Positions 14,512 through 64,000 are shown, numbered from the stretch's first letter. The stretch: 64,000 nucleotides of DNA from Candidatus Woesearchaeota archaeon (GCA_964344975.1 CAYFPK010000001.1:15485-79484), one strand, 5' to 3'. Notes: generated by a model from the letters alone, not told the origin. Numbers and translations: made by a program.

Positions 14512-14568
14512 AAACTGCTTAAATTTCTCACCAAACTAGCATAATATACGAAAAAACAACCAAAAAGT
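14512..14568. repeat. direct repeat copy B (diverged reductase 3'-end remnant plus promoter)
   Basis: See copy A. Encodes KLLKFLTKLA* out of frame with the neighbouring genes. Confidence 0.6.
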
Positions 14569-14575
14569 ATATAAA
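14568..14575 (+). promoter_or_regulatory. TATA box (tatataaa) for the AbrB-antitoxin/VapC cassette
   Basis: 23 nt upstream of ATG 14599. Confidence 0.45.
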
Positions 14576-14598
14576 GATGTTTAAACATATGTATAAAC

Positions 14599-14796: not shown

Positions 14797-14797
14797 A

Positions 14798-15184: not shown

Positions 15185-15281
15185 ATGAGAAAAAAGAAAA
15201 ACTGGGTTGGCTTATATTAGTAGAAAAAAATCTTGCAAAGGATTGGTTAAGCAAGGAAGAGGAAAAAGCATGGAAAGACCT

Positions 15282-38382: not shown

Positions 38383-40770
38383 TTATCGTAGCCTATTTCT
38401 AAACGATCGACGAATAAATATCTCAATCAAATAGACAATTAACGCAAGCAACAAAAACGGCCACGCGTAATAGGTTCGCTCATACACCGCCTTCTGAGAA
38501 GCAGAACGCAAGAACACTTCAATACCATCAACATCAGCAGGATCAAACATATGCCCACCAGTACCTTCAACAATACGAGATAAATCCTTGTTAAAGCCGA
38601 CACGCTTATACTCCGTTGGCCCATTGATAGCATACGTCGCACCTAAAAGCGTATGAAACCCAACATCTTCAGCGACAAGCACACCTTCATATAAATTATC
38701 AGCAAACTTGACAAAAGAAACAGAGTCAGAGACAGGCTGCGAAGAAGACTTCACACGAACGGTGATGGTATCACCAACAGCAGCATCACTGATATCAACA
38801 AAATATTCATTCTTTCGTTCAGGATCGCCAATAGCCCAATTCACCATACGAGTAAGAACCTGCGAATTACCACGACTCAAAATTTCAGGCGCATACGCGG
38901 TCCCATCATCTAAGGTAAAGCTAGCAACACGACCAAGTCCGTACCGCCAAACCGTTAATGCAGGATCCCCTTGTGACGTAGTCAGAAGTAAATGCGCAGC
39001 AGCCTTAGGCACAACGGTGTTAAAACCATACACAGCAGCAGAAATGTCACCTAAATCTTGCGTGATAAAATGATGTTCATTTAAAACAGTTAAATGTTGC
39101 ACCGCAGCACCAGAATCGTCCGGGTCACCAAACAATAATTTAATACGCTCCTTCTCTGCAGCCTTAAAATACGCACCATGCCCATAATCCGCGATACGTT
39201 GCATCACATCATCGTTGGTCCGCCCACCAACACCGATGGTGTAAATACGCACACCCGCATCAGCAGCCCGAGCAGCGGCACGCAGAGCTTCATCATACCC
39301 CTGCGTTTTCCCATCAGAAATTAAAATAATATTTTTATCACCAGAAACCGAAGAAAGCATCTCCACACCAGCCATGATACCGACATCAATTTTTGTACCA
39401 CCCAAATCACTCAACGCAGCAACATCATCAACTAAGTCCACTTGCTCAAGTAACATCTTCATTTCAGCGATAGTGTACGGCACCGTATTAAAGGCAATAA
39501 AACCCACACGGTTGAGCACACCAATGTCACTTAACACCCCTAAAGCAATTGCTTTTTCCACATCAACTGCTTTATCACCAGCAACTAAAGAACCGGTACT
39601 ACCTGAGATATCCATAACAACAACAATGTTAATGTCACCTTGCTTTTTTCCGGCCTGCGCAACATACACAGGCAACACCTGCTCAAAGACAGAACCTTTG
39701 TAATCGCTTGCATCATACGCCTGTGGTCCACCAAAAACAACTAAACCGTTACCATCAGCAACAAAGCTAGACACTGAAGACACTGAAGGGTCAACTAAAG
39801 CAGCAGGCGTGTTTGAGACAACTAAAGCGGTGTATGGATCTAAAGCATCTAAAGATTCAAGCTCAACTAAATCATAGATAGGAGAAAAGAGTTCAACCAA
39901 AGGTGACGTGCCAAGGCTATACAAGCCAACCTTCGGCTTGGGTACAACTTTCACGGTTTTGTAAAAGACATTATTCGATGCAAAAGTATCTTGTACGGGT
40001 AGAGTCGCAACAATTTCGTGATACCCGCTTGAAAACGTTGCAGAAAACTGCCACCCAGAATCAACAGCACGTAAAGCAACAGGCATACCATCTAAGGTAA
40101 CAGTAGGTGCAGCGACACCACGATCAAGACTTTCATCGACAAAAATACCAAACGTGTTTTCCACATTCGCGGTAGTTTTCCCGGGACCAACGACACGCAC
40201 AGCAGCATCATACTCATCAGCAACAAGTTGCACAGCAGAAATGGTCGCGTTTAAAGAGGTAGCATACGTGGCAATATCTTCAAGAGACGAACCACTAGTG
40301 GTATACCCATCACTAACAAGTAAAAGGTTATCATGCTCACGCAAATGTGACAAAACACCATCACCTAAATCCGATACCGTGGCAAACCCAACAGGATTAT
40401 ATTCAACCCGTACACGTTCCGTTAAAGCGTCACGCAAAGTTGGCGCAACGTTTGCATCAAAAAGGGTAAACGAATCTGACGCATCAGCCAAAATATGTAC
40501 ACGCGGATCACCAGAAACCGTATGCGTATCATAGGTGTACGGCAAAGAAAGTGCAATAAGCAGTAAAAAGAAAATTAAGCTACGAGAGAACAAAAAGAAA
40601 ACACGTAACCGTGAACGATATTTTGCTAAACGTTCTGAAGTAAACGTTTTATGTTTAGCTTCATCTTGCAAATAAAAATATAAAAAGATAAAGAGCGGAA
40701 CAATGGCAAGCATAAACAGGGGCTTTTCAAAAAACTGATACAAGACCGTTAACAAATCAGCAAGAACCAC
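38383..40770 (-). CDS. membrane-anchored von Willebrand factor A (vWA) domain protein, BatB-like
   Basis: N-terminal double TM, vWA MIDAS motif (VVVMDISGSTGSL), C-terminal TM (WPFLLLALIVYLIEIFI). 795 aa. Confidence 0.6.
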   Translation of the reverse strand: MVLADLLTVLYQFFEKPLFMLAIVPLFIFLYFYLQDEAKHKTFTSERLAKYRSRLRVFFLFSRSLIFFLLLIALSLPYTYDTHTVSGDPRVHILADASDSFTLFDANVAPTLRDALTERVRVEYNPVGFATVSDLGDGVLSHLREHDNLLLVSDGYTTSGSSLEDIATYATSLNATISAVQLVADEYDAAVRVVGPGKTTANVENTFGIFVDESLDRGVAAPTVTLDGMPVALRAVDSGWQFSATFSSGYHEIVATLPVQDTFASNNVFYKTVKVVPKPKVGLYSLGTSPLVELFSPIYDLVELESLDALDPYTALVVSNTPAALVDPSVSSVSSFVADGNGLVVFGGPQAYDASDYKGSVFEQVLPVYVAQAGKKQGDINIVVVMDISGSTGSLVAGDKAVDVEKAIALGVLSDIGVLNRVGFIAFNTVPYTIAEMKMLLEQVDLVDDVAALSDLGGTKIDVGIMAGVEMLSSVSGDKNIILISDGKTQGYDEALRAAARAADAGVRIYTIGVGGRTNDDVMQRIADYGHGAYFKAAEKERIKLLFGDPDDSGAAVQHLTVLNEHHFITQDLGDISAAVYGFNTVVPKAAAHLLLTTSQGDPALTVWRYGLGRVASFTLDDGTAYAPEILSRGNSQVLTRMVNWAIGDPERKNEYFVDISDAAVGDTITVRVKSSSQPVSDSVSFVKFADNLYEGVLVAEDVGFHTLLGATYAINGPTEYKRVGFNKDLSRIVEGTGGHMFDPADVDGIEVFLRSASQKAVYERTYYAWPFLLLALIVYLIEIFIRRSFRNRLR

Positions 40771-42546
40771 CTAAAACGCCCCCCGTCGTCGTAAAAAGAA
40801 AAGTTCAGCAAGTAGCAACACAAAAGCACACAGAGCAAGTAAAAACAAAAACGGTTGACGTACAGATTTTCGCACAACTGAAAATTCATATTGCGCTGAA
40901 GAAACAGCATCAGCCGCAGGCGTAGCAACAAGATGCGATTCACGCTCATCAGCTAAGTTTACAGCAACCTTGTGCCCACCGACGGTAAAGATACCAACTT
41001 TATCAAGTAACGTCAAATCAAGCAACCCCTGCGCACCAGGCGCAGACACAGAATCACCGGTACGCAAATTTACAGCAGACAACTCCGGCCACCCGCCAAG
41101 ATATTTTACCACACGTGACCAAAAGATCGGATACGAAGGAGAGAGCATAAAGTCACTTGAAGCAGCAGAAATACCAGAGTACAACACTTGGCCACCTGCA
41201 ATATCAGACAACACGATGATAGGCGTAGCATCAGCAGTTGCAAGCACAACAGCATCACCACCAAGAGTAGTGTTCACATAACTGGTTACAGCACCAAACT
41301 CAACATCTTGTGTTAAACGGTTCCCGCTATGTACAGAAACAACTCCATGTCCAGAGGTAGGACCAAAATCTACAGGAAGATATGTATCAAATCCAGCAAC
41401 ATTTCCTGAAAAAATAATACCGCCTCCATCAGTAGCAATACTTTCTAAGATTTCATCAACAGTACCATGCAAAACATCATCTAAAGTAATGTCAGCAAAC
41501 ACATACACATCATACCCAGAGGTAGGAACAATCGGCGGCTCAGCCACACGCACAGAAACAACACCGGACGCTTCAAGAGCAGCACGCATGTACCGCGCAT
41601 CCCCTGAAGTCACCAAAAGGACATCTAAAAAATCTTTATCAGGTACTGAAACAAACGCTTCATTGTCAACAGTAAAATCATCAGCAACATCTAAAGCAAT
41701 TTTCGTCACACCAGGTAAAGTAGAAAAGAGGTAGGGCTCAACCGCACCAGCAGATAAAGACAATTTAGTTTGTTCTACATCATTAACAAGGATAGGCACT
41801 TGTACAGGCGCATCCAAATAATTCTTTACATAGATAGACGTGGTACGCTCATCAACAGCAACATCTACAATACCTATGTTAGCCAAATCAGACTCAGCGT
41901 AAGAGATAAAGTCAACAACAATCTCGCGAGATTCTAAAAGACCTTTAGCAACATCAGGGTGCATACCTTTCGTTGAAATAAAATCACTAAGCACATACAC
42001 GCGTCCAGGCTCACCAGCTAACAACTCCCCCGCAAGAAGCACCGCATCACCGATAGCAGATTCAGTATCTGTTGCCTGTACAGAACGCAACAACCGTTGC
42101 GCAGCACCACGATCTGCATCTTCTAGTGCAAGCAACGGCGTCGACCCGGCTAAAATAATAGTTGTGGAATCAGAAACCAAAGATAAAGCACGCTCTTGCA
42201 TAGAGGCAAAGATCTCTTCACCAGAAACTTCTGCTTGCGTACTTGCAGACACATCAAGCACAATCACGGTATGATCAGCGGCAACATCCCGAGGTACATC
42301 CATCCACGGATCCGTGATAGCAAGGGCAAGTAAAATAAAAATAAGAAACTGTAGCCAAAAAAGAGGATCTGAGACAAATTTACGAAAAAACGTTTGATGA
42401 TGCGCTTTGTGAATATCCTTCATAAAAAACATAAGCGAAGGTACCTTTAGCTTTTCCGGACGCGGTTTAATTAAATATAAAATAATTAAAGGAATCAAAA
42501 ACAAAAAAGCAGCAAACCCTGCTGCATGTAACACCCCAAAAGCCAT
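40771..42546 (-). CDS. membrane-anchored vWA domain protein, BatA-like
   Basis: N-terminal double TM (AAFLFLIPLIILYLI...), MIDAS-like VIVLDVSASTQ, C-terminal TM. Directly abuts the downstream vWA gene (zero intergenic). Confidence 0.6.
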   Translation of the reverse strand: MAFGVLHAAGFAAFLFLIPLIILYLIKPRPEKLKVPSLMFFMKDIHKAHHQTFFRKFVSDPLFWLQFLIFILLALAITDPWMDVPRDVAADHTVIVLDVSASTQAEVSGEEIFASMQERALSLVSDSTTIILAGSTPLLALEDADRGAAQRLLRSVQATDTESAIGDAVLLAGELLAGEPGRVYVLSDFISTKGMHPDVAKGLLESREIVVDFISYAESDLANIGIVDVAVDERTTSIYVKNYLDAPVQVPILVNDVEQTKLSLSAGAVEPYLFSTLPGVTKIALDVADDFTVDNEAFVSVPDKDFLDVLLVTSGDARYMRAALEASGVVSVRVAEPPIVPTSGYDVYVFADITLDDVLHGTVDEILESIATDGGGIIFSGNVAGFDTYLPVDFGPTSGHGVVSVHSGNRLTQDVEFGAVTSYVNTTLGGDAVVLATADATPIIVLSDIAGGQVLYSGISAASSDFMLSPSYPIFWSRVVKYLGGWPELSAVNLRTGDSVSAPGAQGLLDLTLLDKVGIFTVGGHKVAVNLADERESHLVATPAADAVSSAQYEFSVVRKSVRQPFLFLLALCAFVLLLAELFFLRRRGAF

Positions 42547-42594: not shown

Positions 42595-42718
42595 CGCCGC
42601 GGGCAGGATTTGAACCTACATATCCGTGAGGAAACCGGCTCTCTCGAACTCCGTTGGGAGTAGAAAGCTAAGCTTTCGTATTCAAGGCCGGCGCAATACC
42701 AGATTATGCGACCGCGGC
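42595..42718 (-). tRNA. tRNA-Ser (anticodon UGA) with a ~40-nt intron at the canonical 37/38 position
   Basis: Manual fold of the minus strand: acceptor GCCGCGG/CCGCGGC, D-arm, anticodon stem CCGGC/GCCGG with loop CUUGAA[intron]A (anticodon UGA), 15-nt variable arm with UCC/GGA stem (type II tRNA), T-arm GUAGG-UUCAAAU-CCUGC, discriminator G. Intron about 42641..42680. Needs confirmation with tRNAscan-SE / BHB-motif search. Confidence 0.6.
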
Positions 42719-51549: not shown

Positions 51550-52557
51550 ATGGGCATCAACTTAGCAAGTATCATTCCAAAAGAAGAAATCAAGTTTGAA
51601 GATCTTAAAGGCAAAAAGGTAGCAGTAGACTTCTCCAATATGGCCTATCAATTCCTAGCAAGCATTAGGCAACCAGACGGCACTCCTTTACAAAACAGCC
51701 AAGGAAAAACAACATCACATTTGCAAGGAATATTGTCACGAGTGAGCAATTTAACAGAAAAAGAAATTAAACTTGCTTTTGTCTTTGACGGCAAACCGCC
51801 ATTACTTAAAGTAAAAGAACTTGAAGCACGTGCACACAGAAAAGTGCTCGCAAAACAAAAGTATGACACAGCAATGCAAGAAGATAATGTAGACGACGCA
51901 TACAAGTACAGTAAGCAAACCATCAGATTAACAAAAGAGATGAAAGAAGAATCGCAAGAACTCCTAGAAGCTATGGGGTTTCCCTGTATACAAGCCCCCC
52001 AAGAAGCTGAAGCACAAACAGCATACATGACCAAAAAAAATGATGTCTTCGCAGCAGCATCTTCTGATTACGACAGTTTACTGTTTGGCTGTCCAAGAAG
52101 TATTCGAAACTTAACACTGGCACAAAAAAGAAGACTACGGGGTGGAAAATATGTATACACGTTTTTAGAACTCATGAAACTTGAAAAAATAAAAAAAGAA
52201 CTAGTCATTAACCAAGAACAACTAATAGCAATTGGGATATTAACAGGGACAGATTTTAACAGAGGCGGCATAAAAGGGATTGGCCCAAAAAAAGCAATAA
52301 AGTTAGTTAAAGAGAAAAAAACGATAAAAAACATCTTCAAAGATCTTGAGTGCGACTTTGATCCAGAAGAAATTTACAACATTTTCACCAAAATGCCCAT
52401 TGAAGAAAAATACAAACTAGTATGGAAACAACCAAACGAAAAAAGGTTGTTAAATTTATTGGTAGACAAAAATGAGTTTAACCAAGCAAGAGTCGAAGGG
52501 TACATAAAAAGACTCAGCAAAAGAGAAAAAACCCAAAAAGGGTTAAGCGACTTTTAA
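51550..52557 (+). CDS. fen1: flap endonuclease FEN-1
   Basis: MGINLASIIPKEEIKFEDLKGKKVAVDFSNMAYQFL is the XPG-N start, followed by XPG-I (GTDFN...GIGPKKA) and an H3TH motif. Confidence 0.85.
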   Translation: MGINLASIIPKEEIKFEDLKGKKVAVDFSNMAYQFLASIRQPDGTPLQNSQGKTTSHLQGILSRVSNLTEKEIKLAFVFDGKPPLLKVKELEARAHRKVLAKQKYDTAMQEDNVDDAYKYSKQTIRLTKEMKEESQELLEAMGFPCIQAPQEAEAQTAYMTKKNDVFAAASSDYDSLLFGCPRSIRNLTLAQKRRLRGGKYVYTFLELMKLEKIKKELVINQEQLIAIGILTGTDFNRGGIKGIGPKKAIKLVKEKKTIKNIFKDLECDFDPEEIYNIFTKMPIEEKYKLVWKQPNEKRLLNLLVDKNEFNQARVEGYIKRLSKREKTQKGLSDF

Positions 52558-55502
52558 AGCGTTTCAACTTCTTCTGTATCAACATCTTCTAACTCAGAAA
52601 AACTACGTTCACCTTCACCAACTTCAACAGTGTCTTCTTCTAAAGAAAGTTCAGGTAAACGCTCATCAGTTACATCCAACCAATCATCTGGTTTTTGCAA
52701 CTGCATGGCATATCGATCAAGAAATTCATGGCGCAGATAATAAAGACTAGTAGCATCTTTATCTGTACTACCAGTAAAGTTTTGAATAGTTTTTAGAGCA
52801 AGCCCATATTTAGCCATTGAAAAAACATGTACAAACGAATCCATAAGCGTCTTAAAACGTGGAGTCAACAAAGAATCAAGGTCAAGACCATACATGACAG
52901 AAAGATCAACAAATGAGGAAAGATGCTCAAAAGCCTCAACAACGGCACTTTCTACTGAAGAGATTTGTAAAAGAACAGTATCCACTGCACGATGTTGTTC
53001 ATCAGTAAGTGCAACACCATCTGTATAGCGCTTAAGCAGACGTCGCAACTTCAAAAACAAAACCTTTTCCTCATCCAAAAGATGTGCAGCATCTAAGATA
53101 GGCGCTGGAGATGTAGAAAGGCGCACATCAAACGGCAAAGAAAGAGCAAGTTCTGCACCAGAAGAATCAAAACCTCTCGCAATAAACGAAAGGACAAGTT
53201 CATCTGAAGGTTTGTAATGCAATTCTAAACCTTCACCAACTTTTTCAACAAAATGCTCCGAATCTGTAGTCCACCATTCCACACGAGCAACATTTTTCGG
53301 AACACCAGTAACATACAAATAGATTTCATCTAAAAGCGAAGCATAAGGTTTACCAGCAACAACCAATTCGGGCAAAGTCACAGCAATAGGACTAACAGAA
53401 AAAAGTAATCGAGTAAAAACTTTTTCACCTAATGAATCTTGCCCCCGGACAAGAAGCTCTTTACGACCAGGCACATGCGGCGTATACAAAAAATCAGCAC
53501 CAACAGTCAGATTTTGAGGAAAAGAAAAGTCACTTGTACGAGAAGCAACATCATAAATATCAACAGAAACAAGGTTTTCCACAAGAGGTCGAGAAGAGCT
53601 AACAGAAAAAACAACAGATTCATCAACAGCTAAACTTGCAGGAAAATTATGTACAACCAAATCAGCAACAGGCGCAGCGCCAACAGTAACCGCCCCCACA
53701 GCAGAACCTAGAAAAGCACCAGACACATGGTACGCCTCAGCACGTAACGTGACCTGTTGACCAGTTAAAGAATCAGCAAATTGATAGACAGCAACAAGAT
53801 CTCCTGCAACAGCAGCATCCTCTGGCAAAGCAGCAACTTCTCCTGAAGCATCAACATACGACCATGTAACAAACGCAGGTGCAGGCCCAGATTTCACTAA
53901 AAGGTGTACAGACAACTCCTCTCCTGCAGCAACAGCATCCTCAGAAACAAGATGATAGATAGGAAGTTCATCAACGGCAGTTAGAATTTGACGCGCAATC
54001 ATAAAATACTGTCCAGCATAACGAACATAGACATACAACGTGTACCTTCCTTCATCATGCAAGCGAAAAGAAACAGGAGAAGAAACTTGCACAGGGCCAA
54101 CAGCATCAGCCACAGCAAACTTTGAAGCAACAAGTTCATCAAAAGTAGACGAGCTCACTGCATAGTAAACATCATACAACGCCGTCGTGTCCACTGCATA
54201 AGAGACATCTGTGTTACAAGCAACAACAGCAGGCCCTTCTATGGTAACAGCAATATCTGCAGGGTGACGTAAAACTGTAATAGGAAACGAAAGTTCATCA
54301 ACAATACCATCCAAGGTATGCAATCGTGCAACTAAACGGTTTGCAGCTAAAGCTTCACCACCCAAAACAAGATCTACAACTATGCCGGCAACATCTTGCG
54401 CAACAACATCATCTAAATCAATAAAGTGTCCAGAAATTTCATATCCCCACAAAACATGCTGTACAGCAAAAGGATCGCCAAAAAAATCTACTGACCAACG
54501 TGAAGGTGAACCAACAAACAAAATGTTAGACCCATCATCCGGCGTTACAGAGAGTAAGAAAGGTACAAAAACAAGCGGCAATTCAATAGCAGAGTCATAA
54601 AGTGGGTGTGTTGCATCAACACAGGGAACTAAACGCACAGAGGTATAATCAACAAGTGCAGAGCGAGAAAAAGTAACAGCACCGTCTCCAACAGGGTAAG
54701 TCATTGCAGAACTCGTAAAGGATCCATCACTAGACAAAAAATCTACGCGAATAAAAGCAACATCAGAATCCGCAAAGGACTGATAAGCTAAAGTAACTTC
54801 TTCACGGTCAACACGCAACTCCTGCTCATCAACAAACAGATGAAACCGCCGCTCATAAGAAAAATCGCGAGAAACTGAAGCTAAAACCACATCACCACGA
54901 GAAAGAACTTCAACAACAATTTGTCCAGAACTTCCAACAACAGCAGTAGGTTTCCAAACTAAAACAACGTCACGCTGTGGGCGATCTAAAGGCAAAAGTT
55001 GCATAAGGGTACGTTTATTAGCAACGACCTGATACAAAGCAACAGAGGCAACATCTTTAAGCGAACCTGCTAAATGAATAGGGATAGAGATTTGATCACG
55101 ACTCATAATCTGGTAGGTTTCATCTGTAGCTGCAAAGGAAGCATCAATAGTAACAACTAAAGGCGCAGAAACAGTAGGCGCAGAAACAGGCTGCGGTTCC
55201 TCACGAGGAAAGTGTAAAGCAATGGGAGTAATTTTAACTAAAGATGCATCAGATTTTTTTTTAGCAATTAAAAAAAGAGTTGCATCATCATACTGGTTAT
55301 AAAAGTCAGTAACATCACAAGCTAAAGCAGGAAGCACATCAGAACCAAATCGATGCGGCTCAAGTTTATCTTCAGTAATAGCAATAGCTTTGTCCAAGTC
55401 AGCATCAACATCAAAACGATCAAGGTCCCCGGGCAAAACCAAATAAAAAAAATCAAGGTCAGAATGTAAACGTATAGAACGGTAATATATTTTAGGATTC
55501 AT
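52554..55502 (-). CDS. giant uncharacterized protein D (982 aa), last gene of a four-gene coupled operon
   Basis: No recognisable domain, signal peptide or TM. Predicted beta-rich, repetitive V/A/S/D-rich segments. Acidic C-terminal tail (...EDTVEVGEGERSFSELEDVDTEEVETL). ATG overlaps the stop of gene C (ATGA at 55499-55502). Confidence 0.55.
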   Translation of the reverse strand: MNPKIYYRSIRLHSDLDFFYLVLPGDLDRFDVDADLDKAIAITEDKLEPHRFGSDVLPALACDVTDFYNQYDDATLFLIAKKKSDASLVKITPIALHFPREEPQPVSAPTVSAPLVVTIDASFAATDETYQIMSRDQISIPIHLAGSLKDVASVALYQVVANKRTLMQLLPLDRPQRDVVLVWKPTAVVGSSGQIVVEVLSRGDVVLASVSRDFSYERRFHLFVDEQELRVDREEVTLAYQSFADSDVAFIRVDFLSSDGSFTSSAMTYPVGDGAVTFSRSALVDYTSVRLVPCVDATHPLYDSAIELPLVFVPFLLSVTPDDGSNILFVGSPSRWSVDFFGDPFAVQHVLWGYEISGHFIDLDDVVAQDVAGIVVDLVLGGEALAANRLVARLHTLDGIVDELSFPITVLRHPADIAVTIEGPAVVACNTDVSYAVDTTALYDVYYAVSSSTFDELVASKFAVADAVGPVQVSSPVSFRLHDEGRYTLYVYVRYAGQYFMIARQILTAVDELPIYHLVSEDAVAAGEELSVHLLVKSGPAPAFVTWSYVDASGEVAALPEDAAVAGDLVAVYQFADSLTGQQVTLRAEAYHVSGAFLGSAVGAVTVGAAPVADLVVHNFPASLAVDESVVFSVSSSRPLVENLVSVDIYDVASRTSDFSFPQNLTVGADFLYTPHVPGRKELLVRGQDSLGEKVFTRLLFSVSPIAVTLPELVVAGKPYASLLDEIYLYVTGVPKNVARVEWWTTDSEHFVEKVGEGLELHYKPSDELVLSFIARGFDSSGAELALSLPFDVRLSTSPAPILDAAHLLDEEKVLFLKLRRLLKRYTDGVALTDEQHRAVDTVLLQISSVESAVVEAFEHLSSFVDLSVMYGLDLDSLLTPRFKTLMDSFVHVFSMAKYGLALKTIQNFTGSTDKDATSLYYLRHEFLDRYAMQLQKPDDWLDVTDERLPELSLEEDTVEVGEGERSFSELEDVDTEEVETL

Positions 55503-56878
55503 CTAAACCAATCATCCTCCGAATCACCAGAAAAGTTTACATCTTCTTTGCCCGCAAAAATATCGGCATACGGATCCGCAGAGACTGCAGGTTCAGGTGA
55601 AAGTTCAGCAGGAGCAGTTGCAACTTCAGGCTCAGCTGCAAGCTCACTTTCACCAACTTTTACCTTAGGCTCATCAGTAATAGTAAACGTGTAACTGCGA
55701 TGTGCAAGATCTTTTCGTTCCCCAGAAGAAGAGATTCGTGAAAGGTAAACATCCAAAGTGACCTCTGAAAACTCAGCAAAGAGATCGAAATGATCAAAAA
55801 GCGAAGGGTTCTCATTATCAAAAAGAGACAAAACATCGCCTGTTGCAGAACTTTTCCAACTAAATTGTAAGTCTGGAGCAAGTACTGCCCGCTCAACATC
55901 CGTAAGACCTTGTATGGAGAAATAAAGCCAAGCATCAGCAAGATCAGATCGGGCAACAGTATATTGCATATGTTTACGCAAACCTTTACGAACCATACGA
56001 CCATCAACATGACGCATAGAGCTTAAAGAAAAGTCCAGCTTTAGTTTCGGCGCTGCAAACCTAAGCGAATATTGTTCAAAGAAAAGTTCATCAGAATGAT
56101 CAACATACTCTTTTTTATCTTTAGGTAAAACAACAAGATAAAGCTTGGGTGAATCAATAGAACTAAAATGCACATCAAGACCTGTCTTAGCAAAAGAGCG
56201 CTGCAGATCAGAAGAAGAGACATAGTAAAGAACATCATCACGTGAACGTGTACAAGCAACATAAGAGGATGAATGGCTAGTAGAGCTTTGAATACGAACA
56301 AAAACAGAGTAATCTTTAGGTTTAGCTTTAACAAACTTAAAGGCAATGCGAAAATCTTCAGGGTTTGTAACAGTAAAAGATACAGCTTTACGCCAGTTAG
56401 GCTCAGCAGAAACATTCTTAGAATATTTTTTAATAAAATTCAAGCCAAACCCATCAGGCAAGGTTGGTTTTTCTTGAGCAGGAGACTTTAAAGAAGAAAG
56501 TTCTTCATCATCAAGAATTTTTTCTCGAGCAGGTGCATGAGTAGACTCATCTATAAGTTCCTCAGGTTTTTCAGGACGCGTAGCAGCAACATAAAAATAA
56601 TCATAAAAAGCCCGACCACTCTCTTTATCTTGCAGTAACACACACACTGTCGCCATAGGGTAGTCCTTAAATGCTAGAGCAGAACAAGTAGAGGCATCAA
56701 AGTCAAAAATATAAACAGTTTTCCGAATTCTATAAGCAAAAAAAGAGGGATACTTTTTTTCTGCAAAAATTTTAGGAATTCTTGAAGCAACAAGAAATCC
56801 AGGGTAAATACAATAAGAGACAGAATCAGGAGCAACAACATCCTTAGGAATAGCCAAACGGATATATCGCCAGCTCAT
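55499..56878 (-). CDS. uncharacterized protein C (459 aa) of the coupled operon
   Basis: No motif. Acidic and aromatic C-terminus (...NFSGDSEDDWFR). ATGA overlaps at both ends (56875-56878 and 55499-55502). Confidence 0.55.
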   Translation of the reverse strand: MSWRYIRLAIPKDVVAPDSVSYCIYPGFLVASRIPKIFAEKKYPSFFAYRIRKTVYIFDFDASTCSALAFKDYPMATVCVLLQDKESGRAFYDYFYVAATRPEKPEELIDESTHAPAREKILDDEELSSLKSPAQEKPTLPDGFGLNFIKKYSKNVSAEPNWRKAVSFTVTNPEDFRIAFKFVKAKPKDYSVFVRIQSSTSHSSSYVACTRSRDDVLYYVSSSDLQRSFAKTGLDVHFSSIDSPKLYLVVLPKDKKEYVDHSDELFFEQYSLRFAAPKLKLDFSLSSMRHVDGRMVRKGLRKHMQYTVARSDLADAWLYFSIQGLTDVERAVLAPDLQFSWKSSATGDVLSLFDNENPSLFDHFDLFAEFSEVTLDVYLSRISSSGERKDLAHRSYTFTITDEPKVKVGESELAAEPEVATAPAELSPEPAVSADPYADIFAGKEDVNFSGDSEDDWFR

Positions 56879-58686
56879 TTTTTCTCGTCCTCCAACAAAT
56901 ATGCAATATCAGCTGACTCAGGCTCATCTAAAAATACAAAACGGTTTTCATCAACACCTAAAACCGCAAAATCTTCAGCACGACCAACAGGCGGAGAATC
57001 AATAGATTCGCGATCAGCTTCAGACTCATCAACAACTGGCGGTTCAACTTCCTCTTCAGGAATTAAAGAAGAAAAGTCAGGACTCTTGGAAAAATCAAAT
57101 CTAAAAAAAGCAGAGTTCTCATCACAAGAATAACGAATCGACTTAGGCATCGCTCCCGACTTCGTTGCAATAGGACCTAAAGCAATAGGGGTTTGAAAAC
57201 GGTCAGGCCTTCTTTCAGGGCCAGAGGTACCTTTAGCAAAGGGCAAACGCCAAAAAGAGATTGTTTTTCCCTCAAAAGCAGGATAAAAACTAAGACGAGT
57301 AGAACGGTATGAAGAAAAAAGATCAGTAACAAACCGAGAGGTAAAAAGAAACCTTCCATCTTCAGAAAAAGGTTCTCCTGAGTAGGAATTTCCAGCATAA
57401 AGATTGCAGGAAAAACCAACAGGAAAATCAGAAAGATTCGCAATAGTTGCAACAACGGGTTGTGAAGAGTACGGTTTATTTAATAGGACATAGTAATAAT
57501 AAATTTTTGGATCAGGACCACTAAGAAGTCTATCCAATAAAGAATCTCTCGGAGCAAGTGTTTTCACAACTGGATAGTTCAGCAAGATTTTCATCACAGG
57601 CATCTTCGGCATAGGGTCAGTTAACACCAAATAGTTCCAACCAACAATATCACCATGAGTTTTCTCACGGCCACTCACCACAACACAAAGTAACGTAAAC
57701 GTTTTAGGGTAAGGTTTTTTAAGCCGTTCACGATAATTACAATCCCACTCCAAAGAAGTTCCAAGACCCACAGGTTTACGTTTACCACGATACACTTTTG
57801 CAACATCCTTAAGCGTCAACGCCTTTTTGCCACGCACAACATACCACAAGACTGTCGCTTTCAAAGGTACATCACGCGCAGCAACCTCTAAAGTTGTATC
57901 GGTTAAAGGCAACAGCCCCTTGTGCAAATCAGAACCCACAAACGCAGCAGTATCAACAGGAGACATAATATGCACACGGGAAACTCCACGGGAAACTTCT
58001 TCTCCAGGTACTTCTTCAGTTGGAGGTTCAGGCGTAGAAAGAGGAAGTAACGGGTCAAATCTAAACAAGAACTCAGAGGTAGTCAAAAGATGTTTATCAG
58101 AGTAACGAAGAAGTGAAGCATCTAAGCGAACAACATCTGCACCATCTCCAAGTTCATCACAGATAAAATGGCTCAGCACAAGTAAAAAAGAACCATCTTC
58201 TTGAGCAACCAAAGTATGTGCAGCAAGAACAGCGCTGGTAAAAAGAAATGCACGGCCATCTTCAGTAACAAGAGAAACCTCCAATTCATAGTCTTGAAGC
58301 CGTTCCCCAGAAAGTTTAAAGGCAATCTTGGCATCATCCACACGAGTTCCATCAAAAAGCAGTACATCTTTGCGAAAACCAAAGGCACCTTCCTTGGCAA
58401 AACGCAGGTGAGCACAAAAGTTAGGATCAATATCAACTCCAAGAGATTCAGCAATCTCCTCTTCATCCACAATTTCAACAGGCACTTCTACAGGCACGTG
58501 AAACGAAAACAACACAGGCGCAGTAACAGCAATTTGTTCACCACCCACATCATAAAGTTCAGCAGAAATCTCATACTCTCCAGAAGATACCATCTTACTT
58601 AAAGCAACAAACTCAGAGGTAAAATCATAGGTAAAGTCATCACCCGCAGCAGGTTCCAAGATAAATCCTTTCTTAAACTTCTTCAT
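56875..58686 (-). CDS. uncharacterized protein B (~603 aa) of the coupled operon; longest ORF extends to 58746
   Basis: ATG at 58686 (MKKFKKGFILEPAAGDD...) overlaps the TGA of gene A (ATGA at 58683-58686). No motif. Acidic C-terminus. Confidence 0.55.
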   Translation of the reverse strand: MKKFKKGFILEPAAGDDFTYDFTSEFVALSKMVSSGEYEISAELYDVGGEQIAVTAPVLFSFHVPVEVPVEIVDEEEIAESLGVDIDPNFCAHLRFAKEGAFGFRKDVLLFDGTRVDDAKIAFKLSGERLQDYELEVSLVTEDGRAFLFTSAVLAAHTLVAQEDGSFLLVLSHFICDELGDGADVVRLDASLLRYSDKHLLTTSEFLFRFDPLLPLSTPEPPTEEVPGEEVSRGVSRVHIMSPVDTAAFVGSDLHKGLLPLTDTTLEVAARDVPLKATVLWYVVRGKKALTLKDVAKVYRGKRKPVGLGTSLEWDCNYRERLKKPYPKTFTLLCVVVSGREKTHGDIVGWNYLVLTDPMPKMPVMKILLNYPVVKTLAPRDSLLDRLLSGPDPKIYYYYVLLNKPYSSQPVVATIANLSDFPVGFSCNLYAGNSYSGEPFSEDGRFLFTSRFVTDLFSSYRSTRLSFYPAFEGKTISFWRLPFAKGTSGPERRPDRFQTPIALGPIATKSGAMPKSIRYSCDENSAFFRFDFSKSPDFSSLIPEEEVEPPVVDESEADRESIDSPPVGRAEDFAVLGVDENRFVFLDEPESADIAYLLEDEKK

Positions 58687-60908
58687 GGACGTTTTCCCCC
58701 AAAAGGCCACCAACCCTTTTTTTTCTTGGCAGGTCGCACATGCCACACAATGCGATCAACACGGTCAGCCACTTCACCAGGCTCTAAGCGAGCAACAACG
58801 GGACCTCCAGCAGTTACTTCAGCAGGCATATCCAAATGAACAACAGGCAAAGGTGTAGCTTCATCAGAGGTTTCTGCAAGTATAGACAAAAAATAATCCT
58901 CTGAAGACAAAATGGAGCGATCGTACTCAACATCCGCATCAGGCGCAAAGACTTTGAAAAAGAAAAGATAAGGTTTCCCAAAAGCAGGCGGATATTCAGA
59001 AGAAAAATGGCGGCGAAGTTGAGAAAGATCAAAAAGATAGGATCCATCATCCTCCATAAACATACCGGGAAAAAGAGTGGTACCATCCTGAGATCTAAAG
59101 AGAAGTGAAAGTTGATAAGGTATAAAATCCTTTTTTTGCAACTGTAGTCCAAGATGTAGTGGTACAGATGAATGAAAATCAGCAAAAGAGATTCTAAATT
59201 CATAAGGGGTACGCCAAGAAGGTGTAGAAATACCCGAGGATTTATTTTTCAAAAAGCGAAATTTAAAATCCTTTGGTAGAGTAGGAGGTCCATCCGCTTC
59301 AGGCTCTTCAGGACTAACTCCTTCACCTACAACTTCAACAAAAATAAGGTCATAATTAACACGCTCACCAGCATCATCATAACCTGCAACAGCAACCGTG
59401 TAAAGGTTCGAATCAAGCGGAGGAGTAGAAAAAGTAGTTAAGACTCCTCTTGCAGAGGGTCTAACAGAAATATGATCAAAAGAAACATATCCTGGTACAA
59501 TACTCCAACCAGAAGAAACAACTGAAGAACCAAATAGTGCACTAAAAGTCAACTCAGTATTTGCCGGAACTTGCACAAAGTTTTTATCTTTTCTAACTTT
59601 TATTTTAAACTCTTTCCAATCAGATCGCGCAGCAACAATCCTCACAGAAGTAGCTCGAGCAGCTTCACCCAGTTCAGCATCTTCATCTTTGCCTCGCCGC
59701 CACTTTCGCTTTAAACGTTCCCACCAATTAAGACCTTCATCCTCAGGCTTAACCTCTTCAGGTTCAGGAAGAATAGGAGCAACAGTATCATTAACAATTT
59801 GAACACCATGCACACCTGATGACGCTTTTGCGCCAGTCTCAGTATCGGTACAGGTTACTTCTAAACCAAGGTTCATGCGTTGCCCAGGCCGCAACCCATA
59901 ACGTGCAAGATCTAAGGTAATCGAATCTAAGTTCGGACCAGCAAAACGTTGTGGATAATTTTTCACACGCCACTTAAACTGATAAATACGGCCAGGTTCT
60001 CCACCTTGCACATGAGCAATGAGACGCAACGTAGGACTAGCTGAAATTCGTACAGGGTCAATGGCAGGCTCATGATGAAGTATAACAGTAAATGAAGCAC
60101 GTGGCGTTGATCTAAAAAGCCCACCGAATTTTTTAAACGGCCAAAGAGCAAGACCACCAAGTCCTTTTGCAGCACCCCAGCCAAGACCACCAACACCTTT
60201 AGCAGCGCCCCAACCTTTATCGCCAGTCCACTTAGCAGCTCCCCAACCTTTATCGCCAGTCCACTTAGCAGCACCAACACCTTTATCTTTTCCAGAAGAA
60301 GAAAGGCGACCAAGACCGTGCCAAAAACCTTCCTTAGCACCATCTTCACCAGCACCATACGCAGCAACACGATCTTTAGTACCACGTAAGATATGAATTA
60401 ATAATAGCAACCCTAAGAGTAAAGCTACAGGAAGCAAAAATTCTGCAGGGATAGGTATCCAATAAAACAACTGCGGGTACCACAGATAGCCAACAAGTAA
60501 AGCAGCAAGTAAAATGCCAATAAGGTACATCCCCGACCCATGCGTTTTATCTTTAACCAAGTGATACAAAAACCCAACAGCAATGATACCTAAGAAAACT
60601 AACACAAACGGACCAATGCTAAAAAGTGAAAACCCTTGATAAATTTCCCAGGTAACAAGTGCAAGTGAACATACTAGCCCAAGTGCAAAAGCAAGGTTCT
60701 TTGAAGTTTTACCATCACCACCCACTAACGGTTTGAGGGCAACATCAAAAAGTAAAGACAAAACAAGAAAGGCAACAAAAAAATCGAGCCAACCGTAATA
60801 ATCATAATACAAATCTAGAGGAGTAAAAACAACAGCAGAAACTAAAGGTAAACAAAGTAGCAACAGAGCAAAAACTAGCAAAAACCTACCTCTTTTTAGC
60901 ACAAACAT
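58683..60908 (-). CDS. polytopic membrane protein A (~741 aa; longest ORF extends to 61121) with W/G-rich tandem repeats, first gene of the coupled operon
   Basis: From ATG 60908: MFVLKRGRFLLVFALLLLCLPLVSAVVF..., about 8 TM helices in the first ~230 aa. Then GKDKGVGAAKWTGDKGWGAAKWTGDKGWGAAKGVGGLGWGAAKGLGG (exact 33-bp tandem duplication at 60208..60273). Then a ~450 aa hydrophilic beta-rich domain. Basic C-terminus. Start at 60908 is preferred because 61121 would overlap the divergent Trm5-like gene by 158 nt. Confidence 0.5.
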   Translation of the reverse strand: MFVLKRGRFLLVFALLLLCLPLVSAVVFTPLDLYYDYYGWLDFFVAFLVLSLLFDVALKPLVGGDGKTSKNLAFALGLVCSLALVTWEIYQGFSLFSIGPFVLVFLGIIAVGFLYHLVKDKTHGSGMYLIGILLAALLVGYLWYPQLFYWIPIPAEFLLPVALLLGLLLLIHILRGTKDRVAAYGAGEDGAKEGFWHGLGRLSSSGKDKGVGAAKWTGDKGWGAAKWTGDKGWGAAKGVGGLGWGAAKGLGGLALWPFKKFGGLFRSTPRASFTVILHHEPAIDPVRISASPTLRLIAHVQGGEPGRIYQFKWRVKNYPQRFAGPNLDSITLDLARYGLRPGQRMNLGLEVTCTDTETGAKASSGVHGVQIVNDTVAPILPEPEEVKPEDEGLNWWERLKRKWRRGKDEDAELGEAARATSVRIVAARSDWKEFKIKVRKDKNFVQVPANTELTFSALFGSSVVSSGWSIVPGYVSFDHISVRPSARGVLTTFSTPPLDSNLYTVAVAGYDDAGERVNYDLIFVEVVGEGVSPEEPEADGPPTLPKDFKFRFLKNKSSGISTPSWRTPYEFRISFADFHSSVPLHLGLQLQKKDFIPYQLSLLFRSQDGTTLFPGMFMEDDGSYLFDLSQLRRHFSSEYPPAFGKPYLFFFKVFAPDADVEYDRSILSSEDYFLSILAETSDEATPLPVVHLDMPAEVTAGGPVVARLEPGEVADRVDRIVWHVRPAKKKKGWWPFGGKRP
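60150..60290. repeat. 33-bp tandem repeats inside membrane protein A (encodes the KGWGAAKWTGD units)
   Basis: Unit ccccaacctttatcgccagtccacttagcagc(t) occurs as two exact adjacent copies (60208..60273), flanked by degenerate copies. Confidence 0.7.
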
Positions 60909-60934: not shown

Positions 60935-60943
60935 TTATATAAA
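60935..60943. promoter_or_regulatory. palindromic TATA box (ttatataaa) between divergent membrane protein A and the Trm5-like gene
   Basis: 20 nt upstream of ATG 60964 (plus) and 26 nt upstream of ATG 60908 (minus). Confidence 0.45.
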
Positions 60944-60963
60944 GCTTGTGATAACATAAACAG

Positions 60964-61971: not shown

Positions 61972-62358
61972 ATGCCTTTAACAGATATCACTCAAGGACT
62001 TTTAGGAACCGCAATGATTGCTAGCGCAATTACAGCAGCAGTATTCGCATATCAAGGCTGTAATAGAAGTGAAGCCGAAGAGCTAGGCATCACAGTATGT
62101 CCAAACGGCATTTATTTAGCAAACGGTCACTGGGATCCACAATCCGACTATTTTGAAGTACGAGACGTAGGTATCGACATCAATGGTAACCCGGTTGAGC
62201 AAGGAACATACCAATTTCCAAAAGACAACGTCTTAGTTGGTCTTGACCTTGAACGTTGTGAATTTCGAAGTGCTGAAGATATGTACGAAGGACACTTAAC
62301 ACCGTTCGTTTTACAAGCACAACCAGACGGTTCATTGCAAAAAATAACAAGACCTTAA
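61972..62358 (+). CDS. small N-terminally anchored protein with a Cys pair
   Basis: 128 aa. Hydrophobic N-terminus (LLGTAMIASAITAAVFAY), then a hydrophilic domain with 3 Cys. Confidence 0.35.
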   Translation: MPLTDITQGLLGTAMIASAITAAVFAYQGCNRSEAEELGITVCPNGIYLANGHWDPQSDYFEVRDVGIDINGNPVEQGTYQFPKDNVLVGLDLERCEFRSAEDMYEGHLTPFVLQAQPDGSLQKITRP

Positions 62359-62448: not shown

Positions 62449-64000
62449 TCACAATCCTAATTTTTCAAAGGCAGAACCTTTTGCTTTAACAGCAACAGGA
62501 GCATCAGCACCATGCCACGTTTTTCGAGGATGAATTTGCAGTGGATACATTTTCTCAGCAGTATCATCTAAGACCAAAGCAGCCCCTTTCATACGCGGCA
62601 ACATATCAAAATATTTCTGAATCTGCCCTGGCAAATATGAATGCATCATCGCATTCAAAGCAGCAATGTCACGTTTAGAAGTTAAACGGTGTGACAACAC
62701 TATGTCAGTTTGCGTAATAACATCGGTATGAATCTCACCGGGCTGTTGAGTCGCTAAAACTAAACTCACACCAGGCTGACGCCCTTCACGAAGCACCTGT
62801 ACTAACGCATCCGTTGCAGGCGTCACCGCATCTTTAGGTAAAAACTCATGGGCTTCATCGACAAGCAACCAGACCAAAGGCATCTGCGAACCTACAGCCC
62901 CCATTTGTGAAGAAAAATACGAATGACCACGTTGCACATCATCAAGTTCTTCAACTTTACGATGCGCCATACGCTGTTGCATTAACTTACGAGTTAAAAG
63001 CCCAACGACCAAACTTTTTATGTTCCAATCAGCATAACAACTCACATCAAGAATACTCACCTTACCGCCAGCAACAATCTCAACTAAAGGCGTAGCATCA
63101 ACAGAAAAAATTCCCCAAGACGCAGCTGCAGAAAATCTGTTTTCACAGGCTAAACGCAGCGAAGCAGTTAATCGCGTGTCAGCACGAACAGCGGCAAGTA
63201 AATCACTTAAATCATACACATCTTTTCGAGAAGAAACGCTTCGTACAACACGATCAAGCGCAATACCCAAATCAGAGAACAGCGTTACACCAAACACCCC
63301 ACACCAGTCGGAGCTAGATAGTTCACTTGGTAAAATCGTAAAAGGCGCATCAACAGGAATCCCTGCCTCTTTTTGTGAAGTAAACGCACCTGCAGGGGTA
63401 TACAACGTCACATCAAGACCCTGCGCACGTAACCCCCACTCATCAAGCAAATCTTCTTGTTTGACGTTAGGATACTTCATGGTCCAAAACACCCCCATGG
63501 TATCAAAAATTAACACGGCAATTTTTTCTTTAATCTCAGCATCTAGAGAAGAGATTTCTTCAGCTATTGCAGCTAAGGTGTAAGAATTATGAACAATAAT
63601 ATCATTTGCAACAAAGTTATGAGTCTCAGGAACACAAAAATCATAAACCTCAAATTCACCGTCAAGATATTCTAAAGAGACAATCTCATCCCAAAAAATG
63701 TCTGATTGAGCAAGCTGTGCGATCGCAGGTTGGTTATCAGCAAGAGCAATTTGTAGCAACGTTTGCCTATGTGGTGCATAGCGAATTCTTTCACGCATGG
63801 CCTTGGGGTGCGCATAACCCATAGCACGTCCAACTGCAGCCCAATTAGCAGGCCTATACAAATCCCAAATACCTTTCGGAATAGTGTCAATATTTGAATT
63901 AGAAGCAATTTTAGCTAAATCAGCCAGACAACGTTGAGCTTTCTGCTTTTTGGCACCATAAAACCCGATTTCTTCAATAAACTTCTCACGACTTTCGGAC
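62449..64000 (-). CDS. HerA/FtsK-superfamily (DUF87-like) P-loop ATPase interrupted by an intein; 5' end lies beyond the window edge
   Basis: The reading frame is open from 64000 with no stop. Residues ...DIFWDEIVSLEYLDGEFEVYDFCVPETHNFVANDIIVHN|S are the canonical intein C-terminal splicing block (HNFxANxIxVHN followed by +1 Ser), placing the intein/C-extein junction near 63586. The C-extein carries Walker B and downstream motifs (LVWLLVDEAHEFLP, ...LVLATQQPGEI...). Upstream in-window sequence (KFIEEIGFYGAKKQ...) is consistent with a homing-endonuclease region. Confidence 0.6.
   Translation of the reverse strand, partial: SESREKFIEEIGFYGAKKQKAQRCLADLAKIASNSNIDTIPKGIWDLYRPANWAAVGRAMGYAHPKAMRERIRYAPHRQTLLQIALADNQPAIAQLAQSDIFWDEIVSLEYLDGEFEVYDFCVPETHNFVANDIIVHNSYTLAAIAEEISSLDAEIKEKIAVLIFDTMGVFWTMKYPNVKQEDLLDEWGLRAQGLDVTLYTPAGAFTSQKEAGIPVDAPFTILPSELSSSDWCGVFGVTLFSDLGIALDRVVRSVSSRKDVYDLSDLLAAVRADTRLTASLRLACENRFSAAASWGIFSVDATPLVEIVAGGKVSILDVSCYADWNIKSLVVGLLTRKLMQQRMAHRKVEELDDVQRGHSYFSSQMGAVGSQMPLVWLLVDEAHEFLPKDAVTPATDALVQVLREGRQPGVSLVLATQQPGEIHTDVITQTDIVLSHRLTSKRDIAALNAMMHSYLPGQIQKYFDMLPRMKGAALVLDDTAEKMYPLQIHPRKTWHGADAPVAVKAKGSAFEKLGL

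Follow-up and report, generated by a model that had tools for sequence, protein, structure and literature searches.

Here we describe a four-gene operon in a 64,000-nucleotide (nt) stretch of DNA from a Candidatus Woesearchaeota archaeon (CAYFPK010000001.1:15485-79484), the whole of which is hereafter referred to as the window. Judged by sequence, the first gene of this operon belongs to a small, definable and previously undescribed family of membrane anchors in Woesearchaeota, named here after its YGWxDF motif. The closest genome match identified in a scan with FEN1 is Candidatus Woesearchaeota RIFCSPLOWO2_01_FULL_28_39, whose FEN1 is 58% identical; the genome is that of a small-genome (DPANN, Woesearchaeota-like) archaeon, a possibility that had been raised earlier.

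Organization of the operon

Coordinates are positions in the window and genes are numbered 1-4 in order of transcription, all on the minus strand. The genes and the elements at either end of the operon are as follows.

58683-60908, minus strand: gene 1 (P0002), 741 amino acids (aa) from the ATG at 60908; membrane anchor, then cytoplasmic linker and modules (predicted)
56875-58686, minus strand: gene 2 (P0003), 603 aa from ATG; soluble, net charge -27, tail ...YLLEDEKK
55499-56878, minus strand: gene 3 (P0004), 459 aa; soluble, net charge -11, tail ...SGDSEDDWFR
52554-55502, minus strand: gene 4 (P0001), 982 aa; soluble, net charge -75, tail ...DVDTEEVETL
52554-52557, no strand assigned: convergent overlap of the fen1 and gene 4 stops (TTAA), read from the sequence
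60935-60950, no strand assigned: putative promoter element, comprising the palindromic TATA box TTTATATAA (60935-60943) and, toward Trm5, a purine-rich AAG resembling a B recognition element (BRE)

The original prediction of four consecutive minus-strand genes of 741, 603, 459 and 982 aa is upheld, in that open reading frames (ORFs) and deposited models agree and all four products are identical to deposited proteins on an 86,116-bp contig. At 459-982 aa, however, the proteins are large and not giant, as they had been called. All four ORFs are far longer than chance allows: at a per-codon stop probability of 0.054 for this strand, log10 P(open) ranges from -11 to -24. The exact ATGA overlaps that had been reported to join them are present at 58683-58686, 56875-56878 and 55499-55502; such an overlap occurs in 5 of the 34 same-strand neighbour pairs of the window, and three of the five lie in this operon. 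Given that ATGA overlaps are common in this genome, three consecutive ones represent operon packing rather than an oddity, and translational coupling of genes 1-4 through them is likely. The acidic tails ascribed to genes 2-4 are reflected in net charges of -7, -8 and -15, respectively, over the last 40 aa, and the tail of gene 1 is basic (+6). The operon ends convergent with fen1, as had been noted, and convergence onto FEN1 is kept in L007, L008 and L011 (L numbers designate contigs and loci throughout).

The divergent upstream neighbour of gene 1 is a Trm5/TYW2 methyltransferase gene, and the palindromic TATA box that had been placed between the operon and a divergent tRNA-modification gene was found in the 55-nt spacer, 26 nt before the ATG of gene 1 and 20 nt away from that of Trm5. 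The element (A)AAG-N-TTTATATAA lies at the same place before the gene-1 homologue in L004, L005, L007, L008, L010 and L012. It lies 20-26 nt upstream of the ATG of the family gene and is conserved in seven loci overall, and this conserved BRE/TATA element probably functions as a promoter. The gene order HerA-Trm5-[family gene]-...-FEN1-MetAP-CDC48 is kept in all loci with enough flanking sequence, and the cargo downstream of the family gene ranges from none (L007, L008) to a single 1532-aa protein (L011) or glycosyltransferases (L004). We propose that the Trm5-FEN1 interval is an accessory, fast-evolving insertion point.

Gene 1 and the YGWxDF membrane-anchor family

The following features were delimited in gene 1 and, for the last of them, in gene 3.

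60834-60908, minus strand: signal-peptide-like N-terminus of gene 1, residues 1-25 (MFVLKRGR, a hydrophobic core, P21 and VSA25; hydropathy peak 2.97; cleavage putative)
60387-60833, minus strand: predicted five-helix transmembrane (TM) domain of gene 1, residues 26-174, placed by alignment A3, hydropathy, AlphaFold helices and counts of lysine plus arginine (K+R)
60149-60287, minus strand: G/W/K repeat array of gene 1, a 33-nt tandem encoding the basic 11-aa unit KGWGAAKWTGD just past the last TM helix
58896-59414, minus strand: gene-3-like module of gene 1, residues ~499-671 (BLASTP E 1e-4; hhalign 77-79%)
56003-56665, minus strand: gene 3 core, residues 72-292, homologous to the gene 1 module (hhalign)

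Hydropathy and AlphaFold helices place six hydrophobic segments in gene 1, namely a signal-peptide-like first segment and five TM helices, in place of the approximately eight TM helices originally predicted. AlphaFold helices in the TM domain span residues 30-62, 66-90, 99-120, 125-143 and 155-184, with a predicted local distance difference test score (pLDDT) of 57. Because the signal-peptide-like segment is conserved across the family, with K5, R6, P21 and A25 invariant in the eight-member alignment A3, the claim that the operon has no signal peptide is wrong for gene 1. It holds for genes 2-4, in which no N-terminal hydrophobic segment and no Sec, Tat (twin-arginine) or pilin-type signal was found. 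Also invariant across the family are Y34, G39, W40, D42, F43, L95 and P145, and the conserved residues cluster at what are predicted to be the outer ends of the helices (YGWxDF, VTWE, (F/Y)P(E/Q) and FP(E/Q)..YW).

Family membership is documented by a homologous N-terminal domain (BLASTP E 3e-9 to 4e-37; hhalign 96-99%) and by position, gene 1 being divergent from Trm5/TYW2, upstream of a convergent FEN1 and preceded by an AAAG-TTTATATAA element. The hhalign probabilities of 96-99% were obtained for the gene 1 TM domain against the proteins of L004, L007, L011 and L012; the L004 protein, which is 809 aa long and also divergent from Trm5, aligns with gene 1 residues 19-176 at 28% identity (E 3e-9; hhalign 96%). 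A profile search further recovered P0008, encoded near Trm5 in the Rifle aquifer metagenome, with 52% identity to the gene 1 domain, and a metagenome scan yielded seven further loci, with family members of 408, 471, 688 and 809 aa and two copies cut by contig ends. The named members are L004 (RIFCSPLOWO2_01_FULL_28_39 contig JAGWAD010000011.1), P0008 and those on the JGI contigs Ga0209541, Ga0209542, Ga0233437, Ga0233429 and Ga0208375. Members share the signal-peptide-like segment and the five-TM domain with YGWxDF at 27-52% identity, as well as the Trm5-adjacent site, the BRE/TATA element, and a layout in which a low-complexity linker separates the last helix from variable modules. Conservation is confined to the N-terminal membrane domain; the C-terminal parts have neither sequence nor length in common (whole proteins of 219-809 aa, compared with 741 aa here), and genes 2 and 3 occur only in this lineage, in its second haplotype and partly in L015. 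In relatives, the TM domain is followed by nothing (219 aa), by K/R/E-rich or Gly-rich linkers and units of ~95 aa with a Y-x-W motif, or by a coiled coil. The gene-1 homologues of L007 and L011 carry ~60-120 near-pure K/R/E residues (residues ~200-310, ex. EKERKRLEKEREKERRREKEKKRKEE) right after the last TM helix, a stretch that resembles a single-alpha-helix (ER/K) spacer and stands where the window protein has its G/W/K 11-mer repeat.

A VirB2/TrbC-like pilin (NCBIfam NF045849, Pfam PF18895) was considered for the TM domain and rejected, as the best match reached 22.5 bits against a cutoff of 40. This sub-threshold match corresponds to a TM-loop-TM hairpin in four of eight relatives, and the window protein has no match.

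The tandem KGWGAAKWTGD repeats of the original prediction were recovered by Tandem Repeats Finder with a period of 33, 1.9 + 2.7 copies (~4.6 in all) and 87-91% matches. Copy number and sequence of the array differ in the second haplotype described below, and L012 has a related G/W/K region containing WP[LF]KK[LF]G. Further along gene 1, the gene-3-like module is matched by the gene 3 profile with an hhalign probability of 77% (E 2e-5, 134 columns), and by a profile-profile comparison with 79% over 168 columns; gene 3 core and gene 1 module have the motif PTLPxxFxxxFxKxxSxxxxxPxWR in common.

Relatives of genes 2-4

A full HMMER search of 1.84 billion representatives, run with the concatenation of genes 2 and 3, returned three relatives only (P0009, P0010 and P0011). 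Gene 2 is related to P0009 (58%) and, over residues 224-349, to P0011 from the Rifle aquifer (42%), the central domain of gene 2 being the sole part in common with the latter, and the sole relative of gene 3 is P0010 (56%). In L015, which represents a third lineage, a gene-1-like and a gene-2-like gene are adjacent in that order. Since relatives were found for genes 1-3 (a family for gene 1 and relatives at ~57%), these genes are lineage-restricted rather than orphans. The description of all four as ORFans therefore stands for gene 4, for which a word-indexed search of 5.8 billion proteins, a tool whose negatives are weak, returned the query alone. The same search with gene 1 likewise returned only the query.

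In agreement with the earlier observation that no motif could be recognized, neither a Walker A nor any other simple catalytic motif was found in the four proteins, scans against Pfam, NCBIfam, PHROGs and PADLOC gave nothing significant, and PDB sequence searches gave only noise (E > 0.2). Pfam at E <= 1 yielded a single 12-bit match to MSP in gene 3 (cutoff 25.9), and PADLOC-DB 2.0 (5027 models) gave no family for genes 1-4, P0009 or P0010 and one 12-bit match for P0011. There was no match in viral collections, as searched by IMG/VR pattern scans and by tblastn against 50,697 phage records. Internal repeats detectable by hhalign were absent from genes 1-4, as were paralogues of the operon genes elsewhere in the window. 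AlphaFold2 modelling of gene 2 from a three-sequence alignment gave a pLDDT of 30.8 and was unusable, its confidence being too low to bear out the beta-rich character that had been predicted.

The 1532-aa protein of L011 (1698-6296, plus strand) is the positional analogue of genes 2-4 in that locus: it lacks a signal peptide, and its gene overlaps the stop codon of the gene-1 homologue (471 aa) and is convergent with FEN1. It contains at least four repeat units of ~95 aa with [SQ]Y[VIR]W and has a marginal match to Pfam PKD (E 0.067). Homology of genes 2-4 to this protein, or to the C-terminal parts of the relatives, was considered and no similarity was detectable.

Strand-dependent composition

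The whole window shows an extreme strand asymmetry, with A and C prevailing on the plus strand. At third codon positions, AT skew is about -0.2 to -0.5 in minus-strand genes, compared with about +0.3 to +0.6 in nearly all of those on the plus strand, and GC skew has the opposite sign. Amino acid use follows the strand, plus-strand products being rich in K/N/I/E and minus-strand products in V/A/S/D/F. The summed content of V, A, S, D and F is 29-45% in minus-strand genes (median ~37%), including those for eRF1, phosphoglycerate mutase and HerA, compared with 17-39%, and mostly 17-29% (median ~25%), in plus-strand genes. The V/A/S/D richness noted for the operon proteins is thus real, but it is caused by strand compositional bias and is found in every minus-strand gene of the window. 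Skewed composition was also considered as a reason why homologues might be hidden, and this was rejected because other minus-strand genes with the same bias receive normal Pfam matches. Third-position skews of genes 1-4 equal those of resident minus-strand genes, which argues against recent import of the operon.

The same strand effect is seen, more weakly, in the relatives, and the gene-1 homologue lies on the A-rich strand in L007 and L011, opposite to its position in the window. This suggests that replication orientation is flipped relative to L007 and L011, which would speed protein divergence. Literature searches for strand asymmetry in Woesearchaeota and for PRJEB17505 found no papers. 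A strand bias that rewrites amino acid composition is of independent interest for homology detection.

Coexisting haplotypes and local variation

Variation within and between samples is concentrated in, or delimits, the following features.

55391-60365, no strand assigned: haplotype 'bubble' over the C-terminal part of gene 1, gene 2 and gene 3, where a second, deeply diverged version exists beside the window version in the same two samples
57637-58017, minus strand: central domain of gene 2, residues ~224-350 (SPVD...LPL.D...VLWY.V..KK...WDC.YR...TFTL.CV)
54837-55047, minus strand: polymorphic patch in gene 4, codons 152-222, ~25% diverged in sample ERZ930068

Window-type contigs (L002, L003) and diverged contigs (L013, L014) both derive from samples ERZ930065 and ERZ930061. 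The diverged contigs encode P0009 and P0010 and carry a gene-1-like, a gene-2-like and a gene-3-like gene, then the first 37 codons of gene 4, joined by ATGA, TGATG and ATGA. Block and coupling are thus conserved in a relative, as the original prediction would have it: a ~57%-identical version keeps the order of genes 1 to 4 together with overlapping starts and stops. Contigs of both haplotypes end at the same base (window 55391). Identity between them at the nucleotide level is 98-100% over 55391-55520 and 100% over 60281-60340, and it falls inward to 30-55%, with a mosaic of conserved islands in gene 2 (N-terminus and central domain) and gene 3 (a short stretch and the C-terminus). Of these, the central domain has 80-95% nucleotide identity, and over most of it the ratio of non-synonymous to synonymous substitution rates (dN/dS) is 0.24-0.38. 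In the second haplotype, gene 1 lacks the greater part of the gene-3-like module owing to a 360-nt indel (~58930-59311).

Such a pattern is that expected if one population carries two alleles of the locus, or if it recently recombined with a diverged lineage, and we propose that at least two haplotypes, ancient or imported, exist in this species. The locus has the marks of a hypervariable island at the population level, with near-identical flanks, deeply diverged alleles found together in the same samples, and a cargo that varies among L004, L007, L011 and L012. In most conserved islands dN/dS is 0.08-0.4, which indicates that the genes are under selection; the values of 0.7-1.3 in variable stretches come from unreliable alignment and so cannot separate diversifying from relaxed selection. 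The best-conserved islands (58470-58770 and 55391-55640) span the junctions of genes 1 and 2 and of genes 3 and 4, and the junction of genes 2 and 3 is not conserved (50-65% identity). The junction islands may reflect a coupling constraint, terminal interaction motifs or recombination breakpoints.

In sample ERZ930068, 53 of 54 differences fall inside gene 4 codons 152-222, with one other site in the rest of the 5.5 kb aligned. Substitutions in this patch are of all types, with ~27 synonymous and ~21 non-synonymous by single-change count (estimated dN/dS ~0.26), and no donor or second copy of the patch was found within the window. These three properties identify the patch as a recombination tract and not the result of mutagenesis by a diversity-generating retroelement; the latter origin was rejected in that substitutions are not adenine-specific, many are synonymous third-position changes, and the window holds no template copy.

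Predicted topology and cellular location

Across the eight members of the gene 1 family, K+R residues number 100 in predicted inside segments (the N-terminus, the loops after TM1 and TM3, and the start of the C-terminal part), compared with 8 in the three predicted outer loops. The positive-inside rule therefore predicts a cytoplasmic location for the C-terminal part of gene 1 (560 aa). The long K/R/E-rich or Gly-rich linkers of the relatives start directly after the last helix. Hydropathy of genes 2-4 shows one weak internal hydrophobic peak, in gene 4, and their products are probably intracellular, as far as sequence features can tell.

N-glycosylation sequons were counted with an S-layer-like protein of L004 as control, which has 33 observed compared with 18 expected (z = 4.0). 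Genes 2-4, the C-terminal part of gene 1 and the relatives of 809, 688 and 1532 aa show no such enrichment (z about 1 or less), and only the small L011 protein of 471 aa, with 4 sequons observed, is borderline (z = 2.6). The control, a protein of 874 aa (4703-7327, plus strand) encoded between CDC48 and MetAP, is regarded as S-layer-like because it combines a signal peptide and a C-terminal TM helix with sequon enrichment. The same locus contains two genes for GT4 glycosyltransferases (10932-15517) between the gene-1 homologue and FEN1.

A possible membrane-tethered assembly and its alternatives

Since none of the four proteins has a catalytic motif, we read them as parts of a scaffold or tether rather than as an enzyme or transporter. 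Our preferred interpretation, which we hold tentatively and rate just short of an even chance, is a membrane-tethered intracellular assembly on the inner face of the membrane. The operon would be expressed as one transcription unit from the BRE/TATA element ~26 nt upstream of gene 1, probably as a leaderless polycistronic mRNA, and its four genes would be translated in a coupled manner through the ATGA overlaps. Gene 1 would expose short, aromatic, conserved loops as a small outer face and extend a long arm into the cytoplasm, starting with the basic 11-residue G/W/K repeat next to the inner leaflet and continuing with non-enzymatic modules, one of them gene-3-like. An eleven-residue periodicity with Trp and Lys is often seen in interfacial amphipathic segments, and the G/W/K repeat may be one. 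The acidic, non-enzymatic products of genes 2-4 would dock on gene 1 in the cytoplasm, with possible contacts between the basic linker or tail of gene 1 and its acidic partners or their tails, and like-with-like between gene-3-type modules. Conserved islands would then probably be assembly interfaces, and variable stretches could be exposed surfaces under relaxed or diversifying selection. Candidate roles include organizing a contact site, linking something to the membrane, or serving as a target or sensor in conflicts with viruses. The cytoskeleton-like assembly that had been offered as one option would fit better than a surface apparatus, the assembly itself being presumed.

A more specific proposal is that the locus represents a hitherto undescribed kind of DPANN intracellular membrane-tethered assembly, with a conserved membrane module, a small outer face and a large non-enzymatic cytoplasmic platform, whose variable parts, kept as ancient balanced haplotypes, would act as a specificity determinant (in host contact, self/non-self or virus interaction) read from inside the cell. 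We consider this unlikely.

Several points weigh against an intracellular scaffold. Variation as strong as this at the population level is more often seen in genes for exposed surfaces or conflict than in those for internal scaffolds, and in the sister lineage (L007 compared with L008) the variability of the family gene does not exceed that of its flanks. The poor AlphaFold models (pLDDT ~31 for gene 2, 57 for the TM domain) mean that no fold backs a scaffold role. The topology is predicted from the positive-inside rule and hydropathy, and expression, complex formation and location are likewise read from sequence. Finally, the word-indexed search missed true homologues of gene 1 at ~30% identity, so that its negatives are weak and remote relatives of gene 4 may exist.

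The original prediction favoured a cell-surface, attachment or transport apparatus built on a membrane-embedded base, a candidate for host interaction in a small-genome archaeon. On this reading gene 1 would be the base, and the C-terminal part of gene 1 would be exposed on the outside together with genes 2-4, perhaps through an unrecognized export route. Strain-level hypervariability and mosaicism are typical of exposed structures, PKD-like repeats occur in the equivalent proteins of relatives (Pfam PKD E 0.067; purpose-built repeat profile), the L004 island holds glycosyltransferases near the S-layer-like protein, and large ORFan membrane proteins have been proposed as host-interaction factors in other reduced archaea (bioRxiv 10.1101/2025.05.02.651781). 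Against these stand the positive-inside signal of 100 versus 8, the highly charged K/R/E linkers after the last helix of the relatives, and the lack of a signal peptide of any class in genes 2-4. Sequon z values of 1 or less, compared with 4.0 in the S-layer-like control, and the failure of any protein to reach the Pfam threshold for PKD, Big or CARDB point the same way. A secreted Ig-repeat adhesin or S-layer protein is likewise difficult to reconcile with the absence of a Pfam-significant Ig-like repeat and of export signals on genes 2-4, and with part of gene 1 predicted inside. Charge topology, missing export signals and lack of sequon enrichment together disfavour a surface adhesin, and we regard a surface apparatus as quite unlikely. 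The variability would also suit a conflict system at the membrane, either an antiviral defence or a target or decoy of viruses and mobile elements, with the variable parts as arms-race recognition surfaces. Two deeply diverged coexisting haplotypes with dN/dS of 0.7-1.3 in variable stretches, a separate recombinant patch in gene 4, and site cargo that differs among relatives as in defence islands are all compatible with this, but dN/dS of ~1 in poorly alignable stretches is also expected from relaxed constraint. None of the 5027 PADLOC models is matched, the proteins have no nuclease, ATPase or other effector motif, and no adjacent defence genes are found in the window, which makes a conflict system, too, quite unlikely in our estimation.

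Archaeal viruses often show ORFan content, large non-enzymatic proteins and densely packed genes, and these traits, together with variability of the locus among relatives, would be accounted for if the operon were a remnant or module of an integrated archaeal virus or mobile element whose structural proteins lack database relatives. However, IMG/VR pattern scans, tblastn against the 50,697 phage records and PHROGs gave no match; no integrase, att-like or long direct repeats or tRNA were found at the borders; gene 1 is part of a chromosomal family fixed beside Trm5 with its own conserved promoter element; and the strand-skew signature is that of resident genes. We give this origin very little credence, and equally little to the idea that the ORFs are largely functionless and drifting, open by chance or under weak selection. 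Drift would explain dN/dS near 1 over long stretches, the lack of homologues beyond a narrow lineage and the lack of a confident AlphaFold fold. It would not explain why, given a stop probability of 0.054 per codon, ORFs of 459-982 codons are open in both haplotypes and have retained their order and overlaps, nor the conserved islands with dN/dS of 0.08-0.4, the conserved promoter element, or a gene 4 patch with ~27 synonymous versus ~21 non-synonymous changes (dN/dS estimate ~0.26).

Neighbouring genes in the window

A 128-aa ORF with a hydrophobic N-terminal segment and no Pfam match (61972-62358, plus strand) lies between Trm5 and the HerA-like gene; the short gene at the equivalent position is the least conserved between L007 and L008 (82 aa, 37% identity, compared with 85-95% for its neighbours). 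The adjoining HerA/Zot-like ATPase gene (62449-63861, minus strand, extending upstream of the listed ORF start) carries an intein, with the C-terminal splicing block ...VANDIIVHNS before the ATPase part (Pfam Intein_splicing, E 1e-10). The HerA homologue of L007 (975 aa) has an intein in the P-loop (GKRG followed by C...), and that of L010 (437 aa) has none.

Two adjacent large genes of BatA/VWA type (38383-42546, minus strand; VWA, BatA N-terminal domain, DUF7407 and DUF7408) are unrelated to the operon and are followed by a gene for a SpoIIM-like membrane protein at 37485-38348. An Rfam tRNA match of 44 bits at 42595-42718 (minus strand) probably contains an intron, as the 71-position model is stretched over 124 nt; ARAGORN reported no tRNA in any part of the window.

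Comparison with known systems

DPANN archaea depend on other cells, and roughly one third or more of their genes lack an assigned function. Their genomes commonly contain hypothetical operons, and it is the large lineage-specific proteins that are usually suspected of a part in host contact. The present locus is more testable and informative than most hypothetical operons, in that it combines a fixed variable site, a prediction that its products are inside the cell, and coexisting haplotypes. It provides (i) a definable membrane-anchor family at a fixed site with a conserved promoter element, the cargo downstream of which changes between lineages, (ii) big non-enzymatic proteins predicted inside the cell and not at the surface, which would redirect the reading of such genes, and (iii) a natural haplotype pair in one population that marks constrained segments, likely interfaces, versus freely varying ones. 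Should the proposed assembly be real, it would be a candidate for a sub-membrane scaffold in archaea to which no counterpart is known; otherwise, the locus would still provide a clear case of balanced polymorphism in an archaeon that has not been cultivated.

Three kinds of known systems are comparable. Archaeal surface proteins with PKD or Ig-like domains (Pfam PF00801) resemble the ~95-aa Y-x-W units in the 1532-aa protein of L011, the 809-aa protein of L004 and the 688-aa protein of L007, and the first cytoplasmic module of gene 1 matches the repeat-unit profile weakly (4.8 bits). The best Pfam E value is, however, 0.067 (L011), with none for window proteins, and genes 2-4 have no signal peptide and are predicted to be cytoplasmic. 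Hypervariable metagenomic islands and balanced loci, such as O-antigen and capsule loci or the envelope-gene islands of Haloquadratum, share with this locus conserved flanks, coexisting diverged alleles, mosaic recombination tracts and variable cargo at the same site in relatives. These islands usually encode glycosyltransferases, transporters or secreted surface proteins, whereas the operon products have no enzymes or export signals among them.

Candidatus Sukunaarchaeum has four adjacent same-strand large ORFan genes with a proposed host association, and the SPEARE proteins of Nanohaloarchaeota are comparable large ORFan proteins; proteins of this type are 1,000-5,000 aa long and alpha-helical, each is membrane-spanning or surface-located, and structure prediction is uninformative for them (bioRxiv 10.1101/2025.05.02.651781). 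Such clusters and the present operon have in common adjacent same-strand large proteins without homologues, a small-genome archaeon and proposed action at a membrane, the likeness being one of description, with no sequence relationship sought or found; here only gene 1 is membrane-spanning, and the other products are soluble and predicted to be intracellular. Judged by sequence, the four proteins represent new families, at a locus whose kind resembles both hypervariable islands and large-ORFan clusters. It differs from both in having one membrane anchor with soluble, predicted-intracellular partners and in having neither enzymes nor export signals on those partners.

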